64,000 nt of DNA, taken from the NCBI GenBank assembly GCA_037190965.1, contig JBBCKI010000024.1, positions 1-64,000 on the forward strand, written 5' to 3'. Under the pieces are notes generated by a model. That model had not been told where the DNA came from and ran no database searches. It was given only the letters and a program-made list of their open reading frames with translations. Positions 8,086 through 44,669 of the stretch are shown one piece after another. This stretch comes from Chthoniobacteraceae bacterium (GTDB lineage Bacteria > Verrucomicrobiota > Verrucomicrobiia > Chthoniobacterales > Chthoniobacteraceae). The position numbers were made by a program, and so were the translations under genes. Each line of letters starts with the position of its first letter. Position 1 is the stretch's first letter.

Positions 8086-8287
8086 GGCCTGATGTTATCG
8101 CCCTCAAAATCATGCAAAAATCATAATTTTGGCCCGTAAATCGTGCGAAACCTTGCCTCTGGCCCGTTTTCCGGCATTCTCGTAAGTGCAATGAAGAAGC
8201 AGACTTGCGCAGAATCTACGATGCGAGGTCGCCATTCAAATCCCGTACGCGCTGCCAGTATTCAAGGTTCCAGCTTGTTCACGAATC

Positions 8288-10897
8288 TTAGCGAGAGTTC
8301 TGCTCGACAACTTCAGCCGGCACGAGAAGCTGCGCTCCCGATGGCGCCATGAAGGGGGGGACCGTCATCAAGCGCAGTGCGCCGTTCCTTGCTTGGAAGA
8401 ACCAGCACTTACCGGTGTCCGCCGGGTTGACCGGAACATTGATGTAACCAGGTTCCCCGGTAAGTTCGAATACCTTTGTGCCCTCGGGATCCATAACTGT
8501 CCCTCTCCCTGTGGCGAAAGCGCCGATGCTTTTGGTTCCTCTTGGCACGTAAAACACCAGCCGATCATGCAGGCCTACAATAGTTGGGGTGACATCGCTG
8601 GAAAACTCCAGAGTGAAGAATTGCTCCTTGGGCCAACGCACCAACGTCCCTGCCGCTTTATCGTCGAGCATCACGCGATACTCTCCTTTCTCCGCCACCT
8701 TTAATTGTATTGGCTCATCGGTAGTCCCCGGCGGAAGGGAGACTTCCGCGATGGGGGGCTCGAAAACAGGCGCATCCTCCCCGGCAGCCGCATCCGCTTC
8801 GTTCGGAGGGGCCACTTCTCCCGTCATGGAATGGAGCCGGAAGTTGGAATTACCCCGGTTTTTGTAGAAAAGACCAGCGCGCGCCTCAAAAGAGATCGGT
8901 TCCGCTGGTTCCCCGGCTCCGGTATAAATCGTAATGCGCCCCCGGAACTTCATCAGCACTGGCTTTCTTTCGTCGCCGCCCCCGATCTCGGGCAGGCGGC
9001 TGGCGGGAACCAAATTCCGGGAGAAATAAACAGGCTCGAAATCAAGGAGAGCAAAGTTCTCGATGCCCTCGTTGATCATTCCGTCGATAGCAAGCCGATC
9101 GAACGCTTCGGAGGATTTCCACGGGTTCTCCCCCTCCGGGCGCTTGTAGGCTGCCTCCTCCGGGATGCGGACATCCTTATGCCGGAGGATCATGTCCCGC
9201 CACAAGGCATAGGAATGCATCATTCCGGTATCCCTGATGCGATAGGCGAACTTTAGCATCTCTTCAAAGGCCGGTTGTCTTTCGCCTTTCTTGGCATGGG
9301 TGAAACGGTAGAGGTGGACAAGGTATTGAGTGTAAAGTGTCAGGCAATCCAGCCGCGCCAGTGCGCTTTCATCCTTCGTCATCTCCCGTGCCTCCTTCAA
9401 CACCCGGAACATCCGGCCGATGGTGTCAGGGTTCAGTGGAAATCGCTTTTGGCTGTCAGGGTGCAGGATATTGCGATAGAAACGCGTCATCGGCTCCTCC
9501 GCCTCCGGGAAGCAATTCTTCACGAACTCGGTGGCAATCTCCTCCTTGCGGGAAGCCTCACTGAGGTCCCAAAGCATGCGGGAGGCAAAATAGTAGCCAA
9601 GGCCGCAGGGCCCCCAATTGTCGCCCGACTCCGCGCTGTAAAACCGCGCGCCCTGGCGATGATAGTCAGGAATCGTTCTGGCCAGGGAATCCAGGCTGGC
9701 GGCTCTTGGCATGCCGGGCCGGTCCTGGCTCCATGAAAAGATGCTCAGATAGTCGCGTATCCCCAGATTTTGCGCCCCGGCCTTTTTCCACCCCTCGATG
9801 ATCTGATCCAGCCTGAGCCCTCCCGTGATGTAACTGGTCGCCACGCCCACAAACACATGGGGGTGAACGCGGAATTTTGCCGGAGGAGTCGCATGCTCAT
9901 TGTAGGCATAAATGCCGACGAACTTCCCCGGAAATTGCTCGTTCACCTTCTGCGCAACCTCGTTCGCAAGGTAGACAACCCGGTCGCTGGGTGTGCCGAT
10001 GGCCAGCTCCTCCGGGCTGTTGCCCCACCCCCCTCCGTCCGATGGGTCCATGGAAATAGAATAGGCCTTGGGATTGCGTTCAAAATAGTTAAGAGCATAG
10101 CGAACCGCGAGATTGCGCACCTCCGGGTTGCCGATGTTCAATTTACTCGTTCTCTTGCCGTTGAGTTCACTGAGGAGATGGTCATCCTCCTCGAACTCCG
10201 TTTTGAAAGCCCGCATAATGGCGCCGTACGCATGCCCCGTGTTCATGAGAAATCCCCCCTGACCACGGCTGCTGGTCCGGTTCTTGCGCACCCAACCTTC
10301 GAAATCATTTTCGCTCCAGCTCCCGTAGTTATACCAGATCCACCGGCCCGTGTAGTCAGGCTTCTCGAACGCGTCGATATCCGCGCTCAAACGTGGGTGT
10401 TGCGGTACAACCTCCCACGCCTTGGCCGGAAAATATTGGCGGTAGCCGAGGCGATGCAGAAAGTCCCAGACCGCGTGATCAGCCCCGAGGTCTGTCGCGC
10501 CGATCAACGCGACGCGCCCGGGCGAAGTTCGCAAAAGATAATCTTCCTCCCGGTAAGGGTCACTCATGACAAAAGCTTCGCCCGCGGCCACCCCAGGAAA
10601 CTCCCCCGCCGTCCCGACCACAATCCCGGACACTCCGTCGCCAACTTCGACCCGGAAAGCAGCCCCCGTCATCCTTCCCAGCGTTTGCGCCAGATCATCG
10701 GCGGCCTTGCGCGTCTTATCGGATGCCTCCGCAGAGATGACGACAGGAAGCTTGGCTACCGCGCCATCCGCCAGATCCACGGGGACACCCCAACCTGGCG
10801 CGCTGCCTGCAAGCCAGGCCGAAAGCAGGAGCGCGGCCTTGATGGGGCGGAATGAGTAACTCAATGGATTTTCAAAGGGGGCAGATGAACTCGACAT
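8288..10897 (-). CDS. Secreted DUF4838-domain (glycoside hydrolase-like) protein
   Basis: Signal peptide, GH20/GH67-like N-domain (EDYLLRT...LIGATDLGADHAVWDFL), SMDPSDGGGW, YAYNEH. Confidence 0.75.
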   Translation of the reverse strand: MSSSSAPFENPLSYSFRPIKAALLLSAWLAGSAPGWGVPVDLADGAVAKLPVVISAEASDKTRKAADDLAQTLGRMTGAAFRVEVGDGVSGIVVGTAGEFPGVAAGEAFVMSDPYREEDYLLRTSPGRVALIGATDLGADHAVWDFLHRLGYRQYFPAKAWEVVPQHPRLSADIDAFEKPDYTGRWIWYNYGSWSENDFEGWVRKNRTSSRGQGGFLMNTGHAYGAIMRAFKTEFEEDDHLLSELNGKRTSKLNIGNPEVRNLAVRYALNYFERNPKAYSISMDPSDGGGWGNSPEELAIGTPSDRVVYLANEVAQKVNEQFPGKFVGIYAYNEHATPPAKFRVHPHVFVGVATSYITGGLRLDQIIEGWKKAGAQNLGIRDYLSIFSWSQDRPGMPRAASLDSLARTIPDYHRQGARFYSAESGDNWGPCGLGYYFASRMLWDLSEASRKEEIATEFVKNCFPEAEEPMTRFYRNILHPDSQKRFPLNPDTIGRMFRVLKEAREMTKDESALARLDCLTLYTQYLVHLYRFTHAKKGERQPAFEEMLKFAYRIRDTGMMHSYALWRDMILRHKDVRIPEEAAYKRPEGENPWKSSEAFDRLAIDGMINEGIENFALLDFEPVYFSRNLVPASRLPEIGGGDERKPVLMKFRGRITIYTGAGEPAEPISFEARAGLFYKNRGNSNFRLHSMTGEVAPPNEADAAAGEDAPVFEPPIAEVSLPPGTTDEPIQLKVAEKGEYRVMLDDKAAGTLVRWPKEQFFTLEFSSDVTPTIVGLHDRLVFYVPRGTKSIGAFATGRGTVMDPEGTKVFELTGEPGYINVPVNPADTGKCWFFQARNGALRLMTVPPFMAPSGAQLLVPAEVVEQNSR

Positions 10898-10928
10898 AGA
10901 AATAAGAGGGGATGGCTGGATAGATACT

Positions 10929-13900
10929 TCAGGGAGCGAACTTTTTGGTTTCCACAATGCGGTAACGATAAAGAGGCTCCAGTGATTCCTTGTCGGGGTC
11001 CATCTCCGTAAGGCGACTGTCATTGGGATCGATGTATCGTTCGAAGGTGGCGGAGCCGCGATATTCACTGGTCACAACGTCCTTGTTCTCCACGAACTCA
11101 TCGTGAGGCGTTCCCTTGACCTTCTTCAAAGCCTGTGCCCGGATGTGAACGGTGTAAACGTTCGACTTGGTAGTGAGATGAGGATAGGTGGTCGCATAAG
11201 GCCGCTCCCGCAGGTTATCGCCCGTAAGTTGATAGCCGTCCCACCATGAGGCGATGTTCGCGACGGTGGGCGAACTGCTACCCCCCACGTTAGGGATCAG
11301 GAAAAGCGAACAGATCTCGGCGGCGCTCTTGAATAGATCGCCCTTCTCAGGTTTGCCATTTGGCGCGAAGCGATCCTTGAACTGCTTAAGCGTTTCCTCG
11401 ATATTGATCGCGAAGCGAATCCGGTCCGTTTTGCTTTGCGCGGCACTATCCTTGTAGTAAGGGGCGGCAGCGTTGGAAATCGCAGCCACTCTTTGCGAGC
11501 TGAGCACCGCATGCAGGCCGGTCTCCCTCGTGATATAAACGAAGGGAAGCAACTGGCTGTTGAGGTTGATGCGTCCCGCCGTGGAGAACGGTTCGCTAAT
11601 CGCATAGGGTTCGACTACGGGCGTATTAAAGAAGTCCAGCAAGAGATAATCGGAAGGGTTTTGAGCCCCGTAATGGGAGGCCCCCGCCGCCGGATTCGGG
11701 CAGAAAAGAAGAGTCCTCCATGGTCTGCCTTCATTCCACTTATCCGTCTCGTAGGCGGCATACGTTCTTTTGACTCCCGTGGGGAGCGAGCCGAACATTG
11801 CAGCGGAAGGCATCTGCCGAATGGGGGAGAAATAGCCGGAGGCGCGGTCCCATTCCGTGTCCTTGAAATAAGGACGGCCTGCCAGCCGGGGGTTAAGAAA
11901 GCCGTCGTCGGGCTTGTTGAGATACGCGCCGTCCGCATAGAAGGAGACGCCCGTATCCCAATCGCCCTCCCAACCTTCTGCGCGGAGATCCGTGATTCTT
12001 GGGTCAATCTTGGGCTCGTAAGATTTTGGAGTGGCTAGAGGATCTGCGAGATCTGCGTTGGAAAGGGTATCCCCTTTTCCATAGTCGACGTTGACAAATT
12101 TCCCAAAGGTCGATCCCCGGGCCGTGATATGGGTCTTTCTCCGGAGGGAATGGGCAAAGTGAAACCCTGCTTGACCAAAATCGCGATGAGGACGGAAGAA
12201 CCCCTTGGGCACTACGGGAAGATAGGCGGCGATTCGATAGTCCCCATCCCGCATCACCATGCTATGCACCACATCTTCAGGGTAAATGACATATCCGGAT
12301 GAAGGAGGGTTCTTTCTCCGCCATGCCCAGTCATAGGCATAAGCGTTGGCGGCACCTGCTGAAATCCAGGGAAGAGGCGTCGGAAGATTTGCTGCGGGCA
12401 GTTCGACATGAATCGTTTGGTACGGGGTCCCCCCGACACTCAGCTCCACGGAGACCTCCCCTTGCGAAAGGGCTACTGTGGAACTTGGAGCCGCGATGCC
12501 ATTGTTTGCCAGCCGGCAAAAGCTATAGTTGAATTTCAGTGGGTTGTCGGTGGAGACTTTAGGCAACAACCAGGAAAAGCCATCCGCCGAGCCGATCGAG
12601 CTTCCTGCCGCGCCATTGTTCATCGGTCCTCCCTCAAAGCCGGTGCCGGTGAAGGCCATCACCCCGGAAGATTGCCCGGGGAAGATATCAGCACCGTTGA
12701 TCTTCGCCGTAGAGGTGACCCTGAGGTTGAACTTCGTTGCGCTCCAAGGCATGAATCCGGCCATGGGGGTGAACGTTTCAAAGAAGAGCCCTGTTTGGAT
12801 GGTTCCGCTGACAACGGGCGTTGAGGGGGCGCTGGGCAGGGGGGGAGCGGACCGTTGAATCATGACGACGGCTACTTCCGATAGAGTTGGAATGCGGCCA
12901 GCTCCCCGGGTGCCGTAGTCGGGTATCGAAATCGGAACGACGAACCCTGCTCCGGGATATGTCTTGCTATTGAGGAAATTCGGAATTTCGGAGGCGACCG
13001 TCGGGGCGTTAATGTTTTGAGTATAGCTCTTGAAACTGGAGCCGATGTCCTTGCAGCTTTCGTTAAGATTCACACACCGGATGTAATCGAACATCTCCGT
13101 CAGGATCTGATCCCATTCTCCGCTGACTCCGCCTTCCTGAACATCGTACTTCTCCCTAAAATTACTCCCAAACCCGGGAATTGGGGAACCTGTCAAGTCG
13201 CGGAGGTAGGAGAATATTTTCTGATTTCGGGGGAACTTATCCCAGTCGTCCGTCTGGCTCAGCGGGTAGAGACGTTGAAAGAAATATTCTTTGCGTTTCA
13301 GATCATCCATCGCCCCAAGGGTCGAACAACGGGCGATCAATTGATCATAGACCGTCCGGTGGTCTTGGTCGTCCTGACCGGAGACTGGCCAAAGTGCGAC
13401 GCGCGGCTGCCCGAAAAGGTTAAGATCGGGGCTGCGGCTCTGGGCGGTAAGGAAGAACCGCCACCGATCCAACATCTCCTGGCTGGTTGCTCCCGAAGTG
13501 ACCGGCAAGGTATTCTTCTCTCGATCGCCGTCCTTGCGAAGGAGGCTGAACTGGAGTTCATCGACGGAAGCATAGAGCCGCTCGCGTTTCGCGTCGTTAC
13601 CGGCAATGGAAGTGCGCTTGTTGGATGACGACAAGGTTCCATTTTCTGAGCCGCCCCATTTGTAACGGGGGGTCAGGTCAAAAATCTGTTTCATTGTCGC
13701 ACCCTTTAGAATTTCCAGGAGATTCACGGATGCCGGATGGGCGCTGCTTCTTTGATATTCCCCTTCGGCGGGCGGGGCACCTCCATAATTATAGTCCTGC
13801 CGTACGAAGGTGGCCGGAACATCCCAGAAACTATCCTCATTTGCTGCGTAACCGGCGCTGGCTCCGGCATTGATAATCGCAGGGCTATACTTTGTCCCCG

Positions 13901-33107: not shown

Positions 33108-36002
33108 ATGATATACCGCATGAAATTGCAGCAGATTCCTCTTATGCGTAGGGTGGATGTGGTTATATTCGGTGCGGGGACGGCGGCGGTATCCGCAGCG
33201 CGGGCCGCCCGCCAAGCGGGGAATGCGGTGCTCGTCCTGAGCGACCGCGCCTATCTAGGGGAGGAATCGGCGGGGGCGCTGGAGGTGATGGAGGAGACCA
33301 GGCACGGAGAGTTTCCCGGCAGCGGCATTGAGCCCGGGCGGCCCGGAACGGTTAAGCATGCCCTGGAGATGGCTCTATTGGAGGCAGGCGTCGATTTCCT
33401 TTTCATGGCTAGGCCGGTCGCGCTGCTGCCGGGCCAAGAGGGAGTGATTCACGTCGTCATTGCTTCGCGCACATCGCTGTTGGCGGTAAGCACTGGGCAG
33501 GTACTCGATGCCTCCACGCATGGGTTGCTGCGATCGTTGCCGGGGGTGGAGCGTTTTACCGCGCGGCCCCGGCGTGCGTTGAAGCGGACGGCCGCTTCAG
33601 CCATTCTGTTTGGTAACCTGGCGTGTCCGCCTAAGCTGGATGGCGTGAGGCTCACCCCAGTTGGGCGCACTATTTTATTCACGGACCGCGTCAAACGGGA
33701 CCGCATGGAAGTGCAGGCCTTCCGCGCGCAGTCGGAGGTGGAGCCCTGTGCGCTCACTCCTGAAGGCGCAAAGGCCGAGGCGGAATTTCGCGCTCGTCTT
33801 CTCCATCCCGGCGTTGAACTGCTGGCTGACGCCGTTCGCTGGAAGTTGACGAATACCGCCGAGGAAAATGTCGGGCTTTACGACGATCCGCTGGTTCTGA
33901 CCGCCGCGCAGTATGCCGTTCACCCGCAACTTTGGATCTGCGGACCGGAATTGCCATTGAGCGACGCAGGTCTGGCGACGCTTCATGATTCCGCCATCCT
34001 CGCCGCGCTGGGGCGGCGGCTGGCGGAATTGATGGCAGCGGAAGCACGGCGTCCGGGCGCTGTAAACGGAACCGAGCGGGACAAGGTCATGCCCGGGTTC
34101 GGCAAGATCCGCTTTGTGCCCTCCTTTCTCCGCGAAACAGTAGAGATGCTGGAGCTGGAACTGCCGGAGTTTCCTTTGCTGGATCAGTTCGATGTCGTCG
34201 TGGCAGGCGGTGGAACCGGCGGGGCTCCCGCAGGAATTGCCGCTGCTCGAAGCGGGAAAAGGACGCTGGTGCTGGAGCAGCAGCGGATGCTGGGCGGCGT
34301 CGGAACGGCGGGGACAATCGGGAGCTATTGGTTTGGTAACAAGGTCGGCTTTACGGCGGAGGTGGATAGCTTCCTGCACTCCACGGATCCCACCTATGTT
34401 GACCCGGAGCGCAAGCGCCCGCTCGCGACTTGGAATACGGAATTGAAAGCGGCCTGGTACCTGAGCCAGCTTCAGGCAGCGGGGGGAGAAGTTTGGTTAG
34501 GCAGTTTTGCCTTCGGCGTCGAGATGGACGGGGATTTCGTGGTGGGCGTTCTGGTTTCGACGCCTTTCGGCGCGGGGCTGGTGCGGTGCCGGAGTGTTGT
34601 GGATGCCTCGGGAAATGCTGACATCGCAGCAGCGGCCGGTGCGCCACTCCGCGTGATGGACGCCTTGCACAGCGCGGTGCAGGGGGCGGGGCTTTCGCCC
34701 CGGCGAGTGGGGGCGCATTATGTGAATACGGACTTCACCTTCATCGACGACAATGATCCGTACGGGATTACCTATGCTTACGTTCAGGCCCGGGCCAAAT
34801 TTCCCGAAGAGTTTGATTCCACAACGATCCTGAACACCCGGGAAAGGAGGCAGATCATCGGGCGTATCGAGCTTTCGCCGCTCGATTTTCTAGCCGGGCG
34901 GACGTTCCCCGATGTCATCAATACGGCCAGCAGCAATTTCGATACGCATGGGTTCACGACTCACCCCGTTTTTGCGGTAGTGGCTCCGGATCATGCGCCC
35001 CTCTCCGCGAATGTTCCCTTGCGTTGCCTGATGCCGCAACGGGTAAGGGGGGTGATCGTGACGGGTCTTGGCATGAGTGCTCACCGCGACAGCCTGCCGG
35101 TAATTCGTATGCAGGCGGATGTGCAGAACCAAGGCTACGCCGCCGGGCTGGCCGCGGCGATGGCGACGGATTGTGGCGGGGATTTTGATGCGGTCAACGT
35201 CCGGGTGCTCCAGAGGGAATTGGTCGCGCGGCAGGCGCTCGCCCCGGAGGCATTGGAGTGGGAAGACAGTTTCCCTTTGCCCCGGGAGGAGGTGGTCCGT
35301 TCCGCTGCCATTACGCCAGTCACGCTTTTTTCGGCCGCCATTCTTTTTGCGCACCCGGAGGAGAGCGTCCCTCTCCTGCGAGCCGCCATGCAGCAGCCCG
35401 CTTCAGACCTTCAATACGAGGAAGCCGCGCTGATGCTCGGACTGATGGCCGACGCCAGCGCTGCCTTTGGCCTTGCGGAGCTGATTGCGGCCCGGCCCTG
35501 GGACGAGGGATGGAATTACCGGGGCATGGGGCAATTCGGCATGAGCGCGAGCCGCACTGATGCGCTTATCGTGGCCTTGGGACGGACGCGCTCGGTGGAG
35601 GCCATCCCGGTGCTATTGGAAAAAATGGCGGCGCTTGGGAGTGATGCCGCTTTCTCTCACTGCCGAGCCGTGGCGCTGGCAGCGGGAAGCCTCGGAGCCT
35701 CGGAATACGTTCCCGCTCTGCAGCGGCTCCTTTCTCTGCCGGGAATGCAGGGGCATGCCATCGTCTCCTTCGGCGATGGGGTGCAGGCGGCAAACGGTGA
35801 CCCCGTGGAAACCGCCTCGCGCAACAATTCCCTGAGGGAGCTTTATCTAGCCAAGGGGCTTTACCTCTGCGGCGATTGCGACGGCACGGGCCGCCGTATC
35901 CTGGAAGGGTATAGCCGCGATCTGCGCGGTCCCTTCGCCCGCCATGCCCGGGCGGTTCTGAGTGCCTCAGATTTTGAGCTGCTGCGCCGTAAGAGCATTT
36001 AA
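33108..36002 (+). CDS. FAD-dependent oxidoreductase with two FAD_oxidored-like modules and a HEAT-like C-terminus
   Basis: DVVIFGAG (degenerate) and DVVVAGGGTGG...LGGVGT, VDASGNAD, QGYAAG. Confidence 0.85.
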   Translation: MIYRMKLQQIPLMRRVDVVIFGAGTAAVSAARAARQAGNAVLVLSDRAYLGEESAGALEVMEETRHGEFPGSGIEPGRPGTVKHALEMALLEAGVDFLFMARPVALLPGQEGVIHVVIASRTSLLAVSTGQVLDASTHGLLRSLPGVERFTARPRRALKRTAASAILFGNLACPPKLDGVRLTPVGRTILFTDRVKRDRMEVQAFRAQSEVEPCALTPEGAKAEAEFRARLLHPGVELLADAVRWKLTNTAEENVGLYDDPLVLTAAQYAVHPQLWICGPELPLSDAGLATLHDSAILAALGRRLAELMAAEARRPGAVNGTERDKVMPGFGKIRFVPSFLRETVEMLELELPEFPLLDQFDVVVAGGGTGGAPAGIAAARSGKRTLVLEQQRMLGGVGTAGTIGSYWFGNKVGFTAEVDSFLHSTDPTYVDPERKRPLATWNTELKAAWYLSQLQAAGGEVWLGSFAFGVEMDGDFVVGVLVSTPFGAGLVRCRSVVDASGNADIAAAAGAPLRVMDALHSAVQGAGLSPRRVGAHYVNTDFTFIDDNDPYGITYAYVQARAKFPEEFDSTTILNTRERRQIIGRIELSPLDFLAGRTFPDVINTASSNFDTHGFTTHPVFAVVAPDHAPLSANVPLRCLMPQRVRGVIVTGLGMSAHRDSLPVIRMQADVQNQGYAAGLAAAMATDCGGDFDAVNVRVLQRELVARQALAPEALEWEDSFPLPREEVVRSAAITPVTLFSAAILFAHPEESVPLLRAAMQQPASDLQYEEAALMLGLMADASAAFGLAELIAARPWDEGWNYRGMGQFGMSASRTDALIVALGRTRSVEAIPVLLEKMAALGSDAAFSHCRAVALAAGSLGASEYVPALQRLLSLPGMQGHAIVSFGDGVQAANGDPVETASRNNSLRELYLAKGLYLCGDCDGTGRRILEGYSRDLRGPFARHARAVLSASDFELLRRKSI

Positions 36003-36056
36003 TGCCGGGGAGGGGACTCGAACCCCTACTCCTTGCGGAACCAGATCCTAAGTCTG
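36003..36056 (-). repeat. att site: displaced 3' half of tRNA-Leu(TAG)
   Basis: Reverse complement CAGACTTAGGATCTGGTTCCGCAAGGAGTAGGGGTTCGAGTCCCCTCCCCGGCA. It has no D-arm and no 5' acceptor strand. Confidence 0.93.
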
Positions 36057-36277
36057 ATATGTATCAGCTGATTTTCAGTAGTTTACAGAAAATTCGAGAC
36101 ACGCTGACGTGTCTTGGCTTGTGCGCAAAACTTGAATTTTTGAGGGAGAGGGGGAAACGTAAGTCTTCTTAAGGTGAGGTGAACAGCTTTCGCCACTTCG
36201 AAAGGTTTTAGTCACTCAAGAATTTAGCTCAGAGGTCTGATGGAGATTGGCGAAGCAACTCTCAGTCGCGGGTGCGC

Positions 36278-36306
36278 TTGACATTGTATAAACACTCCTT
36301 CACGAT
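36278..36306 (+). promoter_or_regulatory. Sigma70-like promoter
   Basis: TTGACA-17 bp-CACGAT, 20 nt upstream of the ATG at 36326. Confidence 0.55.
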
Positions 36307-36325
36307 CAAACGACTTTTTACAAAT

Positions 36326-37150
36326 ATGTCGAAGAAACTTTGTTTTATCATATCCCCCATTGGCGAAGAAGGGTCAGAAGTTCGGAAGCGTGCCGACCAA
36401 GTTCTGAGGCATGTGTTAGCGCCAGCGGTTAATGGCTGTGGCTACGAACCAGTTCGTGCTGATACGATTGCGGAGCCCGGCTTGATTACAAGTCAGATTA
36501 TCCAGCACATTGTTGACGATCCCCTCGTCATTGCAGATTTAACCGGGATGAATCCTAACGTCTTCTATGAACTTGCTATCCGGCATGCTATTCGCAGACC
36601 GCTGGTTCAGGTAATTCAGAAAGGCGAAAAAATTCCCTTTGACGTTGCAGGAATGAGGACGATCCCGGTTGATCATCGGGATCTGGACAGCGTCGAAGAA
36701 GCAAAAGGTGAAATTCAAAAACAGATTAAGGCTGTCGAGAGTAAAAAGCCCGCCGATATCGATTCTCCTATCTCAGTATCCGTTGAGATCCAAAGCTTAC
36801 GGCAAAGCGAAAACCCGGAGAAGAGATCATTAGCGGAATTCGTTTCGGCAGTTGCCGATTTACGGTCAGATATTGCCGCAATTGAGAAGCGCATCTCCAG
36901 CCCTGAACGGATACTCCCGGTCGAATATCTTCGCGAGGTGATGCCGATGCTTCGACGAAGGTCAAGGGATAGTGAGATGATTTATAGAGAGCTTACGTCC
37001 TACGCTCGGGAGATGATTGAAGCAATACCAGAAAAGCAACGAGAGGCAGTCAAACCGGCTTTTCTGAGATTCGACAAATTGCTTTGTATGTTGCGCGATG
37101 AATCTTCAGGCTATGAGACAGGAGGGGGGGGGCGAAGCATTTTCGGGTAA
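36326..37150 (+). CDS. Nucleoside 2-deoxyribosyltransferase/TIR-like domain protein with helical C-terminus
   Basis: CFIISPIG, VRAD, VIADLTGMNPNVFYELAIRHA, IPFDV. Confidence 0.75.
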   Translation: MSKKLCFIISPIGEEGSEVRKRADQVLRHVLAPAVNGCGYEPVRADTIAEPGLITSQIIQHIVDDPLVIADLTGMNPNVFYELAIRHAIRRPLVQVIQKGEKIPFDVAGMRTIPVDHRDLDSVEEAKGEIQKQIKAVESKKPADIDSPISVSVEIQSLRQSENPEKRSLAEFVSAVADLRSDIAAIEKRISSPERILPVEYLREVMPMLRRRSRDSEMIYRELTSYAREMIEAIPEKQREAVKPAFLRFDKLLCMLRDESSGYETGGGGRSIFG

Positions 37151-37214: not shown

Positions 37215-37859
37215 TCATGCAGCCAATGCTTTCTTGACTCTCTGCACGGTGGATATACCAGTTCCCGTAATCTTAGCCGTATGCCGGATTGATTGCCCTG
37301 CTTTCAATTGGCGCACAATGTCTTTGTGATTTTGCAGGAAGGTATTTCGCTCAAGTTTTGAACCTTTGGGGCGACCAAGTTTCACACCCTTGCGTCGCGC
37401 CTCTGCTAACCCGGAGTTTATCCTTTCCCGGAGAATTTCCACCTCGCTTCGAGCCATTTCAGCGAGGAGGGCAAGCATTACTCCGGCTGCTGGGTTTCTC
37501 CTTCCGTTAGGCAGAAGGGTTTCAATGCCTTGGGCGTGCCAGTAAAGGGACACGCCGCATTCCTCAAGAATCTCGACGAATCGGTGAGTGGTGCTGTTCT
37601 TGCGTGAAAGACGCGAAACTTCGTGGACGAGAATCTTTTTGATCTTTCCAGAAGAAGCAAGCTCTTCAGCGCGCCTCAGCCCGTGGCGGTCTGATTCATC
37701 CGCTCGACCAGAAATAACCTCGCGGCAAATCTCAACAACCTCGTATCCCTTTCGAGTAGCATATTCCCGCAGTTCGGAAATTTGACGGTCGGTTTCCTGT
37801 TTAACGGTCGAAACCCTGACCAAGATTGCAACGGGAACGCTGGGGTGGCTCTTTTCCAT
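37215..37859 (-). CDS. Serine recombinase (resolvase/invertase) with C-terminal HTH
   Basis: ILVRVSTVKQ catalytic Ser motif, EVSRLSR, ERINSGL...GVKLGRP. Confidence 0.93.
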   Translation of the reverse strand: MEKSHPSVPVAILVRVSTVKQETDRQISELREYATRKGYEVVEICREVISGRADESDRHGLRRAEELASSGKIKKILVHEVSRLSRKNSTTHRFVEILEECGVSLYWHAQGIETLLPNGRRNPAAGVMLALLAEMARSEVEILRERINSGLAEARRKGVKLGRPKGSKLERNTFLQNHKDIVRQLKAGQSIRHTAKITGTGISTVQRVKKALAA

Positions 37860-38063
37860 GCCTTCAGAAATGGAGGGATGTATTCGAAAAATCAACTGTT
37901 TTCGTGAATACACTTATTCAGCCATTTCCTGCCAACCGGCTCTCTGTCCGTTCTGAGAAAAATCGGTGAATGTTTTTTTGAACACACTTATCGTTCTTTC
38001 ATTGCAAGTTAGTCCGTGAATGACGATCCCCCCAGAATCAGATTGATCCCATTGCTGAGGAGT

Positions 38064-38706
38064 CTACCTCGCCGGAGTAGTCTTTGCTCGACGCTGGCAA
38101 TCGGCACAAAACCCGGCTGATTCTGAATCGAGCAGTTCAAGGGAATCCTTCGTTTCGTCTGCCGTCATACAGCACCGGGACGCGATCCTCATAGGCGTGA
38201 TGATTCAAGTTGAGCGTATGCCCGATTTCATCGCGATTTTCACCGCTCGTTCAATCAACAATTCCGAATCTGGCGTATCCTGAGAAAGGGGATGTAGGCT
38301 TATGGTCGCCGCTGGTAGTCCGAGGTAGGCGTAACCAAACAAGAAATTGTAGCGCCGACTCGGGACGATGTTTTGCGCCGTCATGCCCAAGTTGACGAAG
38401 GTTCCTTTACGGTGTCGCCTGTAGACTTGAGCAAGGAAGACGCCAGCGGAAAGCCCCTTCCATTCTGAACGTGAAGAGGCGCGTTCGTCCAAATAGGTCG
38501 GTTGAATAACGACAGCCCCACCCAAAGGCTTCTCTGAGTCCAACGCATATCGGACCCAAGATCCCATCTTCAATGTCTCCCAGCCGCCAAATTGCAATTC
38601 CTTCGCGTGCCTCGTGAACAAGCGGTTGGTGGCACTGTGGACAGGTTAACTCGTGGATTCCCACGTAGAGACTACAGAACTGGCAGATGTTAGAGTCTCG
38701 TCGCAT
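38064..38706 (-). pseudogene. Frameshifted zinc-ribbon + archaemetzincin (M54-like) metalloprotease
   Basis: Pieces lie in different frames: CQFC...CPQC and IAIWRLG...; YNFLFGYAYLG...ERAVKIA; EIGHTLNLNH; CCM...FCADC. Confidence 0.75.
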
Positions 38707-38707: not shown

Positions 38708-39319
38708 CTACCGACGTGCTTGCGCCTCTTGCTGCACTCTGGTTTTACTCGTGCCGGTTGGAAGCTCGTACTTCAACCGGATAAGCCGTTTGTCCGTCTC
38801 GGTAGGCTGCTCAGGAAAAGGTATGACCCAAAATGAATCGTGGTCTAGTCGCGTCCGTTCCTCCCGGTCCTCTGGAAAGCCGAGACTCCAAAGCAAAAGG
38901 TAGGGAGCAATAGCCGGGTTGGTAAATCCTTCTTCACTGTAAATGGGATACCAGACCTCAGCACGGGTGATCGCTTTATTCTGGATTTTCAGTTTCGCTC
39001 CTACCGTCACGCCGTTCCCATCGCCGTTTGCCCGGCTACCCCTTACAACGATGTCTGCTTTCTCATTCCCGTCTTCGATCAGTTTGATCTGAACAGGGAG
39101 TCCTTTCAGGGTCTCGTTAATTCCCTCCACTGCTTCTGCAATTATCGCCCGGTTGGCTCCAAATTCTCCGATGATAGAAAGAGTGGGGGATTTCTCAAAC
39201 CGAATGGATTCGCCCCGCTTTCCACACAAGACATATGTCGCAAGCTTAGGATCGATTGCTTGTACGTCCAAGGAGGACCAAACGAGGGTCGCGGCGAGAA
39301 TCAAAAATGTCTTTTTCAT
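38708..39319 (-). CDS. Secreted hypothetical protein (DUF2927-like), paralog 1
   Basis: Signal peptide. Shares RFEKSPT, GLPVQI, KADIV, PTE.DK..IR.KYE.P.GT with the adjacent gene. Confidence 0.65.
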   Translation of the reverse strand: MKKTFLILAATLVWSSLDVQAIDPKLATYVLCGKRGESIRFEKSPTLSIIGEFGANRAIIAEAVEGINETLKGLPVQIKLIEDGNEKADIVVRGSRANGDGNGVTVGAKLKIQNKAITRAEVWYPIYSEEGFTNPAIAPYLLLWSLGFPEDREERTRLDHDSFWVIPFPEQPTETDKRLIRLKYELPTGTSKTRVQQEAQARR

Positions 39320-39948
39320 TTGAGCGTCTTTTTTGCGAGTTCCCGAACTTTCCATTTGTCGGTTCCAGACGGGATCTCGTACTTGAAGCGGATCGCCTGT
39401 TTGTCGATTTCGGTCGGTGTCATGGGAAGGCGTTCGCCGATATAAGACGAAACACTCCACATGGAATCTTTGCGGATCTTTTCGCCCACATTCGCAAACC
39501 CCATCGCATTCATGATTTTATGATATGCACCTCGTTTATCGGGTTCTCCAAGAGTCCATTCTGGTAGCCAGTTCGAAATGATCGTTGCCTTAAAAATGTA
39601 CCCGTTCTTATACTCTCGATCCACGTCAAAAGCTTTGCTTAACTCAGCCTGCGTGATTGGTTTCGTGTTGTAGACGATATCAGCCTTCTTGTCGTTATCG
39701 GCGACAACAATGATCTGAACGGGAAGCCCTTCCCAGACGGCATTGAGTTCAGAGACGACCTCCAGAATCATTTTTCGATAAACACCGGGGTCTCCGACGA
39801 TTGAGAAGGTTGGGGATTTCTCAAATCGAAAGGACTTTTGTCCTTGGCAGATGATCTCCGCTATAAACTTATCGTCGAGCTTTTCTTGCGCACAGGCGAG
39901 TGTTGACGCGCAGATTGAGAGAACGGCTGCCAGTAGCTTGATTTTCAT
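39316..39948 (-). CDS. Secreted hypothetical protein (DUF2927-like), paralog 2
   Basis: Signal peptide; tandem paralog with ATGA overlap. Confidence 0.65.
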   Translation of the reverse strand: MKIKLLAAVLSICASTLACAQEKLDDKFIAEIICQGQKSFRFEKSPTFSIVGDPGVYRKMILEVVSELNAVWEGLPVQIIVVADNDKKADIVYNTKPITQAELSKAFDVDREYKNGYIFKATIISNWLPEWTLGEPDKRGAYHKIMNAMGFANVGEKIRKDSMWSVSSYIGERLPMTPTEIDKQAIRFKYEIPSGTDKWKVRELAKKTLK

Positions 39949-39974
39949 TGTTCTGTAAAAGTTATCCTTCAAAA

Positions 39975-40715
39975 TCAATTTGTTCTCCGCCGGACTCGGT
40001 AAGCAGAGAGCAATAATCCGCCTGTCATTCCGAGGAGCGCAATGCCTGATGGTTCAGGGACCACGGCAAAGTTGTTGAACGACTGCTGATTTGAAGTGGT
40101 GGACGGGGCATTTCCGTTGAAGAAGAGGTGAAACTGCGAGATTTCAGTCCCTCCAGCGGCGGCTATCAGGTTTCCGCTTCTGCTTATGACCGTTGTCGAG
40201 CCGATTTGATTTACGGCAATCGTGTACGAGGAAGCGCCCGTAAGAGTGAATTCGATGTGGATTCCTTGAGTCGTCTTATTCGCTGACTTCCACCCCGGTC
40301 CATCGTCATCCGTCATCGTGTAACTGGGAGTGAACCCTCCGTAACAGTCGAACTCAAAAAGTAGACTGCCCGAGGCGTTCTCCAGCTTGAACCCGGCAAC
40401 GCTCCCCATTTCGAGCGTACCACTGTAGTAGTCCATGCTGAATGTTTGCCCTATCCCTAAAGCCCCGCCAAATGAACGGACCGCTTGGGCGTTTGTGCCT
40501 GTGCTTGCTTGCAAGGTCAAGGCGGTCCCTGCCGAAAACGTGCCACTGGGACCGCTAGAATTGAGGGTCCAAGAAGAGCCCCAGCCGTACCCGCCATTGC
40601 TGCCGTTGCTCCAGCCCGTCGAGTATGCGGCATTTGCAGCCCTATCGGAAGCAATGGTCGCAGAGTTGCCGTGAACAGGTAGGAGGCAGACCACCGAAAA
40701 CAAGAGGGGTTTCAT
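39975..40715 (-). CDS. PEP-CTERM surface protein
   Basis: ASDRAANAAYSTGWSNGSNGGYGWGSSW N-terminus; VPEP-TM-RVRRR. Confidence 0.9.
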   Translation of the reverse strand: MKPLLFSVVCLLPVHGNSATIASDRAANAAYSTGWSNGSNGGYGWGSSWTLNSSGPSGTFSAGTALTLQASTGTNAQAVRSFGGALGIGQTFSMDYYSGTLEMGSVAGFKLENASGSLLFEFDCYGGFTPSYTMTDDDGPGWKSANKTTQGIHIEFTLTGASSYTIAVNQIGSTTVISRSGNLIAAAGGTEISQFHLFFNGNAPSTTSNQQSFNNFAVVPEPSGIALLGMTGGLLLSAYRVRRRTN

Positions 40716-40784
40716 TTTCCCGGCAAAGCCGGAAGGGCTCAGAAAAGGCGATGCCTTCAATTGTAAATCGCTGTCCATATAAAC

Positions 40785-40876
40785 GCTCCTTTATCGGAGT
40801 AAACAACGGGCGAGGTCAAGGAAATGTGCTCCTTTATACGAGCACTTCCATGAAATGTACCCTTTATCTTGAGTAC
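40785..40876. promoter_or_regulatory. Three repeated operator-like palindromes between the divergent PEP-CTERM and XRE genes
   Basis: gctcCTTTATcggagt (40785-40800), gtgctcCTTTATacgagcac (40826-40845), gtaccCTTTATcttgagtac (40857-40876). Confidence 0.65.
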
Positions 40877-40892
40877 CCCGTCCTACGGGGGC

Positions 40893-41168
40893 ATGAAATC
40901 CGCGCTCAACATTATCGGCTCAAACATTCGCAAGATTCGGGCTTACAAAGGTCTTACTCAGGAGCAGGTTGCCGTAAAGTGTCAGGTTTTGGGCTTCGAT
41001 TTGACTCGAGGCACCCTTGCCAAGATTGAAAGTGGCGTTAGATCGGTCTCCGACCATGAAATTCCATACCTTGCACGCGCCCTCGAAGCCAACATCGAAG
41101 ATCTTTTTCCCACGGAGCTGATTCCTGTGCATCGAGAGCCAAGATTTAAGGGGAGCAGGGATCAGTGA
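40893..41168 (+). CDS. XRE-family HTH regulator
   Basis: IGSNIRKIRAYKGLTQEQVA...TLAKIESG...LARAL. Confidence 0.9.
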   Translation: MKSALNIIGSNIRKIRAYKGLTQEQVAVKCQVLGFDLTRGTLAKIESGVRSVSDHEIPYLARALEANIEDLFPTELIPVHREPRFKGSRDQ

Positions 41169-41377
41169 CTGAGCGCTATAAAGCCGCTGGTCGCTTCTCC
41201 CGCAAGGAATATCTCGAAGAGCAGGGGGAACCCTATGAGTTTGGAGCCGATTTAGCAGTGGATACATTCAATCGGTCCGAGAACTCATGATCGAAGAAGC
41301 GAGCCCCCGGTCCTATCTTCCTCATGATAAAACGAAACAGGGATTTGGACGCGTAGCGGACAACATCCCATCCAGTG

Positions 41378-41434
41378 AAAAAAGCTCGAATTGAGAGCGA
41401 CAGCGAACAATTCCCGACCTCGGTCGAGCTTTTT
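41378..41434 (-). terminator. Terminator-like branched hairpin, possibly bidirectional
   Basis: aaaaagctcga ... tcgagcttttt 11-bp inverted repeat with A/T runs on both sides. Confidence 0.55.
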
Positions 41435-42164
41435 GAAAGCTCATGAAAATAACTTAGAATTTCCGGGCTAAGGAAGTTTTAAAGAAATTCTGGATTATTC
41501 TGATCGAGTTTCTCTGTGGGTCGCTTGATTCACCGACTTCGCGTCGCGTCAAGACGCGCCGCTTAGTCGGTTCATCCGCTCCTAAGTGGCTAACTGCTCA
41601 TTCTTCACAGTTAGCCCAACCTGATTTTTTTGACTAAATCATCGCGTAAGCGAAACGTAGCGGTGGCGTCAAGACATGGTTAGCCCTAGACGCCGATCAA
41701 AGCGTTTTTGGGCTATAAGGAGATAGGTCTCCCGCAACAACCGCTTGCCACTCGCTTGAGTAGCTTGCTGCGTTGTGAAAACGGCAATCGTAGGTCCGAC
41801 TTTCCCCTTGGTAGGGCGAATGCATCCTAGCTCTTAAGGCGAGCGTCCGTTTCCGCTATCGACTCGACCGGCTCGGGAGTCACTCCGATTAAACCAGCTA
41901 GCCAATTTTCGACTCTTTCGAGTCTTACCGTCTCCGGGTTTTTGAGAACTTTCGTTCCGCATTTTCCACAAGATCTAGCCCGGCGCATTGAGCCTCGCTA
42001 AAAGCGCAGTTTTCGCTCCCTCAAGAGACTACTGGCATGCGCACGGCGTCGTTTCCTTATGTTTCGGGGGCGTCTGTCCGTCTATTCCAGACTACGTTGA
42101 CCCTTACTCATCGTCCACCTCGAATTCCAAACAGGGGCTATGACCCATCGAGGCGGCGGGCTAG
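41378..42164 (-). ncRNA. Candidate large (~790 nt) highly structured non-coding RNA (possibly MISL-like or new)
   Basis: No ORF of 60 aa or more. More than 12 helices, with minus-strand GAAA/GAGA/CUUG tetraloops and G-U pairs. The 5' end is closed by CUAGCCCG/CGGGCUAG and the 3' end by a stem followed by U6. Confidence 0.72.
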
Positions 42165-42246
42165 TTATATTTACACATTAATTAATGCTTTTTAACCGAG
42201 AATTAAAATTTTTTATTCCCACGGCATTTTCTGTGTAAAGACATGG

Positions 42247-42813
42247 GTGAATACCCAAGGGATCGTAATTTATGCCGTAGTATGCCTTGCCGACCGACAT
42301 CGCTACATCGGCAGCACCTCAAGAATCGAGAAAAGAGCGTTAGAGCACTGGCGTGATCTTGCCAAAGGAACTCATTTCAGCAAAAGCCTTCAGGTTGCAT
42401 ACAATAGGCATGGGCGTGAAATGTTTGCCTTTTTTATTCTTGAGCGGATCAAAGATGAAGATCAAGTGCGCGAGCGGGAGGAATTCTATATTGCCGATGC
42501 CATCCGAGGAGGAGAAGCATACAACGTTTCACCCGTGGGTGGCAGTAGACGAGGCTATAAACTCAGCGAAGAGACTCGTAGAAAGCAGTCGCTTGCAAAA
42601 ACCGGAAAAAGGCGTCCGGGATTCGGAGCTAAGATTGCGGCGAAGATTTCCAAAGTTTACCGTTTTCTATCTCCAGAAGGTGTATTGGTCGAAACATTCG
42701 GTCTGCGTGACTTCTGCCTGCGGCATGGCTTGAGCATGGGGAATATGAGCCGTCTTGCCAGAGGTTACTTAAAGCAATGTAAGGGCTGGACGGCTGCACC
42801 AACCCTTTCGTGA
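42247..42813 (+). CDS. Free-standing GIY-YIG homing-type endonuclease with NUMOD3 and a C-terminal HTH-like DNA-binding module
   Basis: VIYA...YIGST, catalytic R (IEKR), EH, REE, YN; LSEETRRKQS (NUMOD3); FCLRHGL...KGW. Confidence 0.9.
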   Translation: MNTQGIVIYAVVCLADRHRYIGSTSRIEKRALEHWRDLAKGTHFSKSLQVAYNRHGREMFAFFILERIKDEDQVREREEFYIADAIRGGEAYNVSPVGGSRRGYKLSEETRRKQSLAKTGKRRPGFGAKIAAKISKVYRFLSPEGVLVETFGLRDFCLRHGLSMGNMSRLARGYLKQCKGWTAAPTLS

Positions 42814-43070
42814 AGCAAAAGCGGCGGCTACAGGCATTTAAAAGCGATTGAGGGGCATTTCTGGGGGAGAAATAGTTCACCGCCCCCCGGTTCTCGCAGA
42901 TTTTCCAGTGATTCCGTTTTTTTCAAAAACGGCGGCGGGGCTGTCAGGTGCTAGAAAAAGACAATCTAATGTATATCTCGCAATCAGTTCAACCTATCTG
43001 CGAAAGAGAGCAATGACTTGCGACGGGCTATTGGCTACGCCGTTTTTAACAAAAAATCAAGAAATAAAAG

Positions 43071-43325
43071 TTGCATTTCTGCGGATTTATGATCTTGAGT
43101 TTTTTTAAATTTGTTGATAATGGTTGTGTGTCGATTGAGAACAACGAATCCGAAGACAGTATCCTAGCGTTTCGCTTTAACGCTGAGGGGGAGGCTGTTT
43201 TCCTTCAGCAGTTCAAGTCAGAGCGAGATCGTCTGGCATTGATCTCCTTTGCAAGGATCGTTGTTGACCAACTGAGCGTCGATTTCACCAAATCTTTAAG
43301 CCAACGACAGCTTCATCTTAATTGA
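43071..43325 (+). CDS. Small hypothetical protein (start uncertain)
   Basis: ORF convergent with, and slightly overlapping, the integrase; no recognisable motif. Confidence 0.3.
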   Translation: MHFCGFMILSFFKFVDNGCVSIENNESEDSILAFRFNAEGEAVFLQQFKSERDRLALISFARIVVDQLSVDFTKSLSQRQLHLN

Positions 43326-44489
43326 ATCGACTAAATGCTGATTTTTTTCCATGACTCCCTTCGGTAGTATGTTCCAAAACTTTAGCGCATCCTTGTGGTG
43401 AACGACATCACGATAGGTATTGTACAGGAGAACTGCATTGGGATGTCCTAGGAGCACAGCCGTTGCGCTTGCATTTTTGAAAGCTGCGACGTGATAGCTG
43501 GCGAATGAATGGCGCATCGCATTCTGATGGTATTCGATTTTAGCGCCTTCGCGGACTTTGCGCAGTCGATTTGAGTAATTCTTTGGCGACACCCTGCCTG
43601 TAGAGGCGCAGCATTCCAGCCAAGCTAACGCATTTTTTGGAATTTCATTGGACCGCCTTCTCCCCTTTTTCGCAATCGCCGCAGTGACCTCCACTCGTCT
43701 TTGCTCTAGGTTTATATGCTGCCAGTCGAGCTTCTGTGCTTCCTCGACCCGAATTCCACAGAAGAGTACAAGGACCATGCACGCGCACTCCGCCTTGGCG
43801 TTCGAATCCAGAGCGTGCTGAAGGAGTGTCTTAACATCCGCTGTGGTCAGGCAGGTAACCTTGCTTTCGATTTGTTTTGGTTTTGGAACCTTGGCAAAGG
43901 GATTGAGTTCTCGGGAGATGTAGCCGCGCTCGGCTAGAAAATTGAACAGCAGGACGCCATGTCGTAGATGGTTTCTCCGTGTGGTTTGGTTCCACTTGTG
44001 ATTCTTGTTGTAAATGTACCCCTCCGCTTGCTTGAAATCCACGTTAGTAACGAGGCAGTCTTTGAAGAACTTTTGGAGTGCGCCGAAATACTCTTCGGCA
44101 GATTCGAGGTATCGCTGACTTAGACCGGCTTTGGTTTTAATTTTAAGAAACTCTCTGATTGCCTCTTTGAAGGAAATTGCGGGCTTCGATGGCTTCGCGT
44201 GTTTTAAGAAGAACTCAACGGCATCGTTGAGGGATGCGCCGTAGGGGCGCAGTTTTTCGAGTGCTCCCAAGACCTCATAGCGGGTTGATTGCGCCAAATC
44301 GGACAGCGCCAGCGGGCTTTTCCGTCGAATTTCTTCGTCTGCCTTGCGTTTGAATTCTTGAGCTGCCGCCAAAGTGGGAAAGGTCGGCTGCTTTCTCTTC
44401 CCCTGCACCATGCCCAAATCGACCCGGTAGCTGACGCTCCCACTGCGATTTCGCTTTGGGTGGATCTTTGTTTCCGTCTTCACCTGCAT
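43296..44489 (-). CDS. Tyrosine recombinase/integrase
   Basis: FCGIRVEE (R), AKKG (K), AMRHSFASY, LLGH, YR; adjacent to the tRNA att site. Confidence 0.95.
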   Translation of the reverse strand: MQVKTETKIHPKRNRSGSVSYRVDLGMVQGKRKQPTFPTLAAAQEFKRKADEEIRRKSPLALSDLAQSTRYEVLGALEKLRPYGASLNDAVEFFLKHAKPSKPAISFKEAIREFLKIKTKAGLSQRYLESAEEYFGALQKFFKDCLVTNVDFKQAEGYIYNKNHKWNQTTRRNHLRHGVLLFNFLAERGYISRELNPFAKVPKPKQIESKVTCLTTADVKTLLQHALDSNAKAECACMVLVLFCGIRVEEAQKLDWQHINLEQRRVEVTAAIAKKGRRRSNEIPKNALAWLECCASTGRVSPKNYSNRLRKVREGAKIEYHQNAMRHSFASYHVAAFKNASATAVLLGHPNAVLLYNTYRDVVHHKDALKFWNILPKGVMEKNQHLVDSIKMKLSLA

Positions 44490-44587
44490 CGTGAAAACGT
44501 GCCTCAAAGCGTGTCTCGGTCAAGCAAAAACTTCCCGAAATTCCTTTCGAGGTGTTTTTGTAAGTCTCTGGAAATCAGAGATTTAAG

Positions 44588-44669
44588 TGCCGGGGACAGG
44601 ACTTGAACCTGCACTCCTTTCGGAACCAGATCCTAAGTCTGGCGCGTCTGCCAATTTCGCCACCCCGGC
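44588..44669 (-). tRNA. tRNA-Leu(TAG), CCA not encoded
   Basis: GCCGGGGTGGCGAAATTGGCAGACGCGCCAGACTTAGGATCTGGTTCCGAAAGGAGTGCAGGTTCAAGTCCTGTCCCCGGCA folds as a cloverleaf with a variable arm. Confidence 0.96.

Follow-up and report, generated by a model that had tools for sequence, protein, structure and literature searches.

A candidate class of structured non-coding RNA paired with a GIY-YIG homing-type endonuclease gene in integrative islands of the Chthoniobacteraceae

What does a genomic island carry in a kilobase of DNA that holds no recognizable gene? The question is raised by contig JBBCKI010000024.1 of a Chthoniobacteraceae bacterium (assembly GCA_037190965.1), of which positions 1 to 64,000 (hereafter the window) were analysed. 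A genomic island of ~8.6 kb, integrated at a tRNA-Leu gene, houses a stretch free of open reading frames (ORFs) between the genes for a helix-turn-helix (HTH) regulator and a GIY-YIG endonuclease. An earlier note on this DNA, made from the sequence alone, had proposed that the minus strand of this stretch encodes a giant structured non-coding RNA (ncRNA). The analysis reported here indicates that the locus probably represents a new class of structured ncRNA, which forms a mobile cassette together with a homing endonuclease of the free-standing kind. The parts of the locus are listed below; G499 denotes a genome from another genus of the same family, and L078 its locus.

41169-42246: ORF-free stretch between the HTH and endonuclease genes
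41379-41434, no strand assigned: terminator-like bidirectional inverted repeat flanked on either side by U/A runs, left unscored by the terminator scan because of its 34-nt loop
41435-41680, minus strand: hairpin-rich 3' extension, unalignable with G499
41681-41906, minus strand: conserved structured core of 10 helices and 64 base pairs, delimited by the match of model R3 (see below), covariation and agreeing folds
41860-41904, minus strand: near-invariant hairpin within a 56-nt, 91%-identical block, with five conserved G-U pairs and one compensatory change
41907-41974, minus strand: three small GNRA hairpins (GAAA, GAGA, GAAA), partly conserved, the third missing in G499
41975-42164, minus strand: putative 5' domain with some conserved sequence blocks and an unsupported structure
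42165-42246, no strand assigned: AT-rich spacer separating the predicted 5' end of the RNA from the start of the GIY-YIG gene, with conserved blocks
42247-42813, plus strand: GIY-YIG and NUMOD3 homing-type endonuclease of 188 aa, divergent from the RNA (PF01541, 6.5e-9; PF07460, 1.5e-4)

A ten-helix core conserved between two genera

The homologue in G499 was detected by covariance model, nhmmer and blastn. A covariance model built on a single sequence (R2, 41786-41960) gave a weak full-length match in this genome (23 bits; 1 of 150 family genomes), and the resulting alignment contains a long near-identical stretch. With the whole region as query, nhmmer matched the G499 locus across window positions 41960-41664 (E 1.4e-14), and blastn reported 91% identity over 56 nt. 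Further R2 matches in two other genomes (G019 and G013) were discarded as chance.

Independent folding of the two cores placed helices at homologous positions between conserved sequence anchors. The window helix GGAAACGG/CCGUUUUC, for instance, corresponds to AGUUUGGUU/GACCAAACU in G499, directly after a conserved GAUAGC; likewise, GCUACUC/GAGUGGC corresponds to GGCGUUAC/GUAGCGCC, and GGAGA/UCUCC to GGACGGU/ACCGUCU. A structure of 64 pairs was drawn from the helices common to both folds, and a second covariance model (R3) was built with it on the window sequence. R3 aligns from end to end with positions 9447-9673 of the G499 locus (82.7 bits, E 1e-24), and 127 of the 128 cells in the resulting alignment form standard pairs. 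Twenty of the 64 pairs have changed on both sides, six on one side and 37 are invariant, whereas shuffled sequences yield a mean of 10 two-sided changes and none of 500 shuffles attains 20. Sliding the alignment into six other registers left 0-4 two-sided changes, with 27-49% of the cells paired as opposed to 99% in the real register. In the helix 41854-41847/41784-41777, which lies between conserved anchors, six of eight pairs are compensatory. One helix named in the earlier note, CGCAGCAA/UUGUUGCG, is lost in G499, where a shifted helix with a bulged G (ACAACGC/GCGGUUGU) is kept with two compensatory changes. Because the window row pairs by construction, the covariation evidence rests on the G499 row, in which 63 of 64 pairs are standard. 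Pairs are thus maintained through compensatory substitutions, as seen in two sequences and a model-fitted alignment.

Together, these comparisons demonstrate, at the level of sequence, that at least ten predicted helices have been kept between two genera through many compensatory changes, and that positions 41681-41906 of the minus strand correspond to the conserved core of a putative structured ncRNA lying outside all Rfam families.

The hexamer GGGCTA/TAGCCC is the commonest in both non-coding regions, with seven copies in the window (41465-42163) and five in G499 (L078 8904-9452). Copies also lie in parts that do not align, and several fall in predicted loops. The hexamer may mediate kissing contacts or serve as a protein site. 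One complementary hexamer pair constitutes core helix 10, which is invariant and thus uninformative. The enrichment has a Poisson probability of 7e-9, but as a post-hoc maximum it is weak, since seven or more copies of some hexamer are also reached by 40 of 1000 shuffled sequences and by 18 of the 123 other windows.

Strand assignment and selection on the core

Among the 64 core pairs, 8-9 are G-U. In the near-invariant hairpin (41904-41860; helices 1 and 2), five G-U pairs are conserved in both genomes and the lone paired substitution converts G-C into A-U. Read on the plus strand, a G-U pair turns into an A-C mismatch, and these pairs therefore assign the RNA to the minus strand. The cores are also more stable than shuffled sequences on the minus strand only (minus/plus z of -2.2/+1.3 in the window and -2.5/-0.4 in G499). 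The proposal that selection acts on a minus-strand RNA structure is therefore borne out by covariation with the homologue and by the conserved G-U pairs.

The two cores are 68% identical (76% in unpaired and 64% in paired columns), and the adjoining GIY-YIG genes are 57% identical, with 34% identity at third codon positions, which equals saturation. A ~98% variant is present in a soil metagenome from a different study; contigs of three soil DNA runs were compared. All five of its core differences are at unpaired positions, and two more, located in the 5' domain, disrupt pairs predicted there.

The bias towards minus-strand loops and wobble pairs described in the earlier note is present, but modest. 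Tetraloop hairpins with stems of at least 5 bp number three on the minus and one on the plus strand, against a genome background of 0.45 per 787 nt, and G-U pairs account for 31 of 246 pairs in the minus-strand domain folds and 14 of 227 in the plus-strand folds; with stems of at least 4 bp, however, the loops are equal, at three per strand.

Folding of the whole region

When the minus strand is folded, the minimum-free-energy structure contains twelve of the 14 helices named in the earlier note, the majority at a pair probability of at least 0.9; CUAGCU/AGCUAG is complementary, yet absent from the fold. The terminal stem with U6 was recovered as a perfect 11-nt inverted repeat (41379-41389/41424-41434). 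The region as a whole folds better than chance (z -4.88 on the minus and -2.99 on the plus strand; 20 shuffles), but the signal is uneven. In tests against 200 shuffles, the 3' part (41400-41696) is about equally stable on both strands (z -4.7 minus, -4.3 plus), the middle (41697-41974) is stable on the minus strand (z -2.2 minus, +1.3 plus) and the 5' domain (41975-42164) is weak (z -1.9 minus, -1.6 plus, with 9 and 14 of 200 shuffles equally stable). The 3' hairpins, which provide the strongest thermodynamic signal of the locus, are not its conserved part. A 24-bp long-range helix of the global fold was rejected, 33 of 186 shuffles being as good.

Flanking parts and size of the RNA

The multibranch 5' domain envisaged in the earlier note did not withstand comparison. 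Its closing helix, CUAGCCCG/CGGGCUAG, has no counterpart in G499, a 44-column gap standing in place of its 3' strand, and RNAalifold on the 5' domain of both sequences produced no consensus structure (-4.6 kcal/mol). Upstream of it, the minus strand of the spacer (42165-42246) presents a conserved TTAAAA/TGAAAA-N16-TAAATA/TAAAGA arrangement that appears promoter-like in our reading of the alignment.

On the other side of the core, window and G499 cannot be aligned past ~41665, and identity in 40-column windows of the 3' extension is 0.23-0.40. A model of the 3' hairpins (R1) matched nothing in 150 family genomes, 150 class genomes and 54 loci, and these hairpins (41400-41660) may be lineage-specific. 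The inverted repeat at 41379-41434 is likely to provide the 3' end of both the RNA and the HTH transcript, judging from its terminator-like sequence. From the spacer arrangement and this repeat, on which both ends and the ~790-nt size rest, we infer that transcription would run leftwards from the AT-rich spacer, starting at ~42160, and would stop shortly past the core or else at the bidirectional terminator near 41380, giving an RNA of 500-790 nt in which lineage-specific 5' and 3' elaborations would surround the conserved core. A single giant transcript of ~790 nt, as first proposed, is unproven; the conserved core comprises ~230-300 nt.

Linkage of the RNA to a GIY-YIG endonuclease gene

The gene that diverges from the RNA encodes a GIY-YIG domain and a NUMOD module in a stand-alone ORF, the make-up of a free-standing homing endonuclease. 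Its product matches a PHROG homing endonuclease family (4e-21) as well as the homing-endonuclease model of PADLOC. The divergent arrangement of RNA and endonuclease gene is the same in G499, where the protein is 53% identical over 182 aa. The features of the G499 locus are as follows (L078 coordinates).

4053-4125, plus strand: tRNA-Cys
4206-5468, plus strand: integrase
7505-7738, plus strand: HTH_3 gene
8216-8869, plus strand: 217-aa ORF
8870 to ~9958: ORF-poor region of ~950-1090 bp, whose minus strand carries the RNA homologue
ORF from 9818, ATG at 9959, to 10513, plus strand: GIY-YIG and NUMOD3 gene, 53% identical over 182 aa to that of the window
10734-11729, plus strand: NotI-like restriction endonuclease
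11704-12543, plus strand: D12 (adenine) methyltransferase

The NotI-like restriction endonuclease and the D12 methyltransferase thus directly follow the RNA/endonuclease module in G499. The two carriers differ in integration site and cargo, with tRNA-Leu and PEP-CTERM/TIR-like cargo in the window and tRNA-Cys and NotI-like restriction-modification cargo in G499, and tblastx between the islands detected nothing in common beyond the RNA block, the GIY-YIG gene and, weakly, 53 aa of the integrase. RNA and endonuclease therefore constitute a unit of their own in different islands. This comparison of the two loci demonstrates joint inheritance of the predicted RNA gene and the divergent GIY-YIG/NUMOD3 gene. 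The earlier description of the RNA as core cargo of a mobile element is accurate insofar as it is carried in a tRNA-integrated element, but the RNA is tied to the GIY-YIG gene, and the island backbone differs between carriers.

Distribution of the RNA

Apart from the window's own genome, R3 located the RNA in 1 of 150 family genomes, and in none of 150 order genomes and 150 phylum genomes; these are samples searched under strict filters, so that absence here means not found in those searched. Searches of the region with blastn and nhmmer returned nothing in its own genome beyond itself, in 60 relatives, in phage and plasmid collections, in 21 viral loci with GIY-YIG relatives or in 29 integrase loci, and in 400 phylum genomes they returned only chance matches of 23-45 nt, in 10 genomes. 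An exact 20-mer from the conserved block occurs at seven loci in a collection of 185,579 species. Six of them were rejected as chance, being in unrelated high-GC genomes without flanking similarity, and the seventh (L082) is the same contig as that of G499. In viral contigs, the 20-mer gave one match, also due to chance. Exact-word matches of such GC-rich composition (here L079-L081, L083-L086) require their flanks to be checked before use. A 19-mer that was later found to be unconserved had no match in viral contigs and three chance matches in metagenomes. The collection of homologues thus yielded one true homologue (G499) and one ~98% metagenome variant, most searches being blank.

A word-indexed search of 5.8 billion proteins with the GIY-YIG protein returned only the protein itself, and missed its 53% identical relative in G499. 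The number of 13-mers common to the region and the genome is at about chance level. In antisense duplex tests against the leaders of the island genes no match stood out, the test being uninformative. A literature search found no description of the RNA.

A model for the RNA-endonuclease cassette and points against it

Under the reading that we favor, the RNA would be a folded, trans-acting RNA of a mobile element, comparable in general type to the large phage and prophage RNAs, and the endonuclease, to judge from its family, would be a free-standing homing enzyme whose gene came to lie next to the conserved RNA gene. By cleaving alleles that lack the endonuclease, within or close to the RNA gene, the enzyme would propagate the two genes as one cassette. 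T4 SegB acts likewise in a tRNA cluster.

Several observations weigh against this reading. The covariation counts draw on only two independent sequences and, one of these having supplied the structure to which the alignment was fitted, they lean towards that structure. R3 found no endonuclease-free RNA gene in the family, order and phylum samples, and homing is deduced from the protein family. The co-inheritance of both genes could equally be compatible with functional dependence. Next to viral loci encoding more distant GIY-YIG relatives (25-49% identical), R3 finds the RNA in 0 of 62 cases. A scan with a consensus sigma-70-type promoter scored no site in the spacer, and the size of the RNA is uncertain because the 5' domain and the 3' hairpins are unconserved. 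Finally, the RNA is very rare, being known from two genomes and one metagenome variant.

If confirmed, the locus would provide a new structured RNA class, found in uncultured Verrucomicrobia of soil and built around a well-defined core of ten helices, and a clear case of an ncRNA gene and a homing endonuclease moving jointly between unrelated integrative islands. It bears on what the large RNAs of mobile elements do, and on why homing endonucleases often adjoin RNA genes.

Alternative explanations

The same co-occurrence may be read as functional interdependence, with the RNA regulating a toxic nuclease in antitoxin-like or antisense fashion, or serving as the scaffold or guide of the nuclease, possibly within a defence module. 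Strict co-occurrence in both carriers, the conserved spacer between the divergent genes, the resemblance of the carriers to defence islands (a TIR-like protein in one, NotI-like restriction-modification in the other) and the prevalence of GGGCTA/TAGCCC in both non-coding regions (7 and 5 copies) are all consistent with it. We nonetheless consider it unlikely, given that the protein has the ordinary modular build of a homing endonuclease with DNA-binding motifs of its own, that the locus contains no type III antitoxin-like repeats, that the hexamer enrichment is weak post hoc (40 of 1000 shuffles, 18 of 123 windows), and that the carriers known number only two. A bolder version, in which RNA and GIY-YIG enzyme would form a single RNA-dependent nuclease cassette (scaffolded, guided or licensed) that moves between defence islands, with UAGCCC/GGGCUA mediating RNA-RNA or RNA-DNA contacts, is quite improbable; such a cassette would be an analogue of the omega-RNA nucleases with a different nuclease fold.

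The hairpins might instead act as DNA, in single-stranded or cruciform form, as the recognition or cleavage region of the endonuclease, as an origin or as a target resembling those of Ssn nucleases (SRM). The equal stability of the 3' part on both strands fits this proposal, a protein might recognize the most conserved block, and GIY-YIG Ssn nucleases are described as sitting beside their hairpin targets (PMC11893778). Yet Ssn, as characterized in that source, needs both sequence and structure (PMC11893778), whereas the helices of the core are kept by compensatory change while their sequence turns over freely. The 8-9 G-U pairs and the six one-sided changes between G-C and G-U fit RNA better, folding is strand-asymmetric in both genomes, the region is single-copy rather than a repeat, and the protein is a 188-aa multidomain enzyme rather than a ~94-aa single domain; a role as DNA is accordingly rather unlikely. 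More improbable still is a plus-strand reading, in which the GIY-YIG mRNA would begin with the region as a long, structured 5' leader that controls endonuclease expression. A promoter-like TTGAAA-16-TAGAAT lies at 41433-41460 on that strand, right after the HTH terminator, conservation reaches the GIY-YIG start and a small hairpin spans its GTG start codon, but the promoter-like match is at chance level (1 found, 1.5 expected) and in an unconserved part, and on the plus strand the core is unfolded (z +1.3 and -0.4) and its conserved G-U pairs become A-C mismatches.

The remaining explanation, a non-functional spacer or the remnant of a decayed gene with chance hairpins, would suit the orphan status of the region in most searches, as well as a 5' domain and long-range helices that fold no better than chance. 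It is contradicted by a core conservation well above that of the saturated synonymous sites next door, by covariation, and by the absence of coding signal and protein similarity. The earlier observation of ~1 kb without an ORF of at least 60 aa is accurate, the interval 41268-42246 (979 bp) being the longest without such an ORF in any frame of the 4.2-Mb assembly, in which the second-longest measures 520 bp. Codon periodicity is absent from the ORF-free region (signal/noise of 0.6 versus 1.3-7.7 for island genes). Its six read-through frames have no match in Pfam, and tblastn of the six frames against 50,697 phage records returned no match, so that the search for a decayed protein gene suggested in the earlier note revealed no protein similarity. 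Among 1.84 billion proteins, the sole match to the longest internal ORF (53 aa) is to a low-complexity repeat of a single protein. For the locus as a whole this explanation is scarcely credible; it is largely refuted for the core, and possible for the 3' extension.

Island setting

The island has an integrase gene beside a tRNA gene, a far-end direct repeat of the tRNA 3' part and a deviant composition (GC 0.43-0.53 within the island versus 0.58-0.65 beyond). Its remaining features are listed here.

35992-36056, no strand assigned: left-end direct repeat of the tRNA-Leu 3' part, 65 nt, 83% identical
36272-37150, plus strand: TIR-like protein of 292 aa (PADLOC 'TIR effector', 3.8e-10; phrog_3634, 1.6e-53)
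37215-37913, minus strand: serine recombinase
38708-39460 and 39316-39978, minus strand: two paralogous secreted proteins, 36% identical, also detected as a DNA repeat
39975-40778, minus strand: 267-aa protein with a PEP-CTERM-like C-terminal tail, as read from the sequence
40869-41168, plus strand: Cro/CI-type HTH regulator, convergent with the RNA (HTH_31 and HTH_3)
42814-43295: second gene-poor gap of ~480 bp, from the endonuclease to the integrase gene
43296-44507, minus strand: tyrosine integrase of the island (PF00589, 7.7e-13)
44587-44669, minus strand: tRNA-Leu(tag), the integration target at the right island end, its 3' part duplicated at the left end

The TIR-like protein beside the serine recombinase may be a defence gene. 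The 267-aa protein and the two secreted paralogues make up a cargo operon (38708-40778) that is divergent from the HTH gene and has almost no relatives among 150 family genomes, a secreted paralogue matching one weak relative. Next to it (38205-38706) are two overlapping minus-strand ORFs in different frames, of 138 aa and 99 aa, the latter with two CxxC motifs; neither has a Pfam or PHROG match, and the pair could be a frameshifted or miscalled gene. The HTH regulator has no counterpart in the G499 island detectable by tblastx. Neither the 267-aa nor the HTH protein has viral relatives, and the integrase has none among the genome contigs searched. The gap at 42814-43295 contains no convincing ORF, folds with a z of ~-1 on both strands and presents hairpin and U-run elements resembling bidirectional terminators at ~42900-42930 and 43040-43100.

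The ORF-free region is present as a single copy in the genome. Contigs from the assembly of one run (X1) end exactly at a near-perfect palindrome in it (41527-41576; also noted as 41543-41577), most likely an assembler effect and not a rearrangement. An invertible segment acted upon by the serine recombinase was rejected, there being no joints in the contigs of the three soil DNA runs and the repeats being imperfect.

Comparison with known RNA families and systems

The Rfam scan called for in the earlier note (MISL, GOLLD, ROOL, HEARO/omegaRNA, group I/II) matched no family. Rfam 15 gave no match at gathering score for the RNA region in the window and, at E up to 10, nothing relevant in 41000-42600, 42100-43400 or the G499 homologue region, the matches being at chance level (sR44, E 3.7; leu/phe leader, 9.6; HOTAIR/HOXB13-AS fragments, E >4). 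MISL, which had been named as the first family to test, is an Rfam family (PMC10925082) and was included in these scans; neither the window nor the homologue matched it. GOLLD, ROOL, OLE, HEARO and raiA are ruled out by the lack of a match to their Rfam models. A group I or II intron was likewise rejected, with no model match at E up to 10 and flanks made up of unrelated genes (HTH in the window, the 217-aa ORF in G499).

HEARO, the omega-RNA of IscB, is a structured RNA upstream of a nuclease gene on the same strand. The locus resembles this system in that a predicted structured RNA adjoins a nuclease gene on a mobile element, and departs from it in its divergent orientation, its lack of an Rfam match and a protein-guided homing-type nuclease without the RuvC/HNH-bridge architecture. 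The closest parallel for the endonuclease is with free-standing GIY-YIG enzymes whose genes lie beside RNA genes, T4 SegB being an example: here too a GIY-YIG and NUMOD3 gene adjoins a putative ncRNA gene and the pair appears to move together, but both known carriers of the RNA have the endonuclease, and the element is a bacterial island instead of a lytic phage.

Ssn is described as a single-domain, single-strand GIY-YIG nuclease of ~94 aa, flanked by multi-copy NTS/SRM hairpin repeats of 20-50 nt (PMC11893778). A GIY-YIG gene next to conserved hairpin-forming sequence is common to both systems (PMC11893778). The locus differs in its 188-aa protein with NUMOD3, its single copy and its multi-helix structure with covarying stems, the Ssn hairpins being recognized by sequence as that source presents them (PMC11893778). 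An Ssn/SRM system was excluded on two of these defining features, the 188-aa NUMOD3 protein and the single-copy locus.

Regulatory roles have been proposed for the ~800-nt ncRNA of vibriophage ICP1, the transcript between inverted repeats of PLE satellites and the CI RNA of satellite P4, as portrayed in PMC7567579. The locus resembles these in its ~1-kb ORF-less gap, set in phages or integrated satellites there and in an island here, the transcript being abundant there (PMC7567579) and predicted here. By context, the RNAs of these ORF-less gaps, together with GOLLD and ROOL, come nearest to the RNA described here. GOLLD and ROOL are large, ornate phage and prophage RNAs that frequently lie close to tRNA genes (PMC12286853). 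In contrast to them, the RNA described here has a conserved core of only ~230-300 nt, a small integrative island as its carrier, a tight link to an endonuclease gene and no Rfam match. What it has in common with both, to the extent that PMC12286853 describes them, is a putative GNRA-rich, multi-helix ncRNA on a mobile element beside a tRNA site and, with GOLLD as depicted there, a single conserved part surrounded by variable elaborations (PMC12286853).

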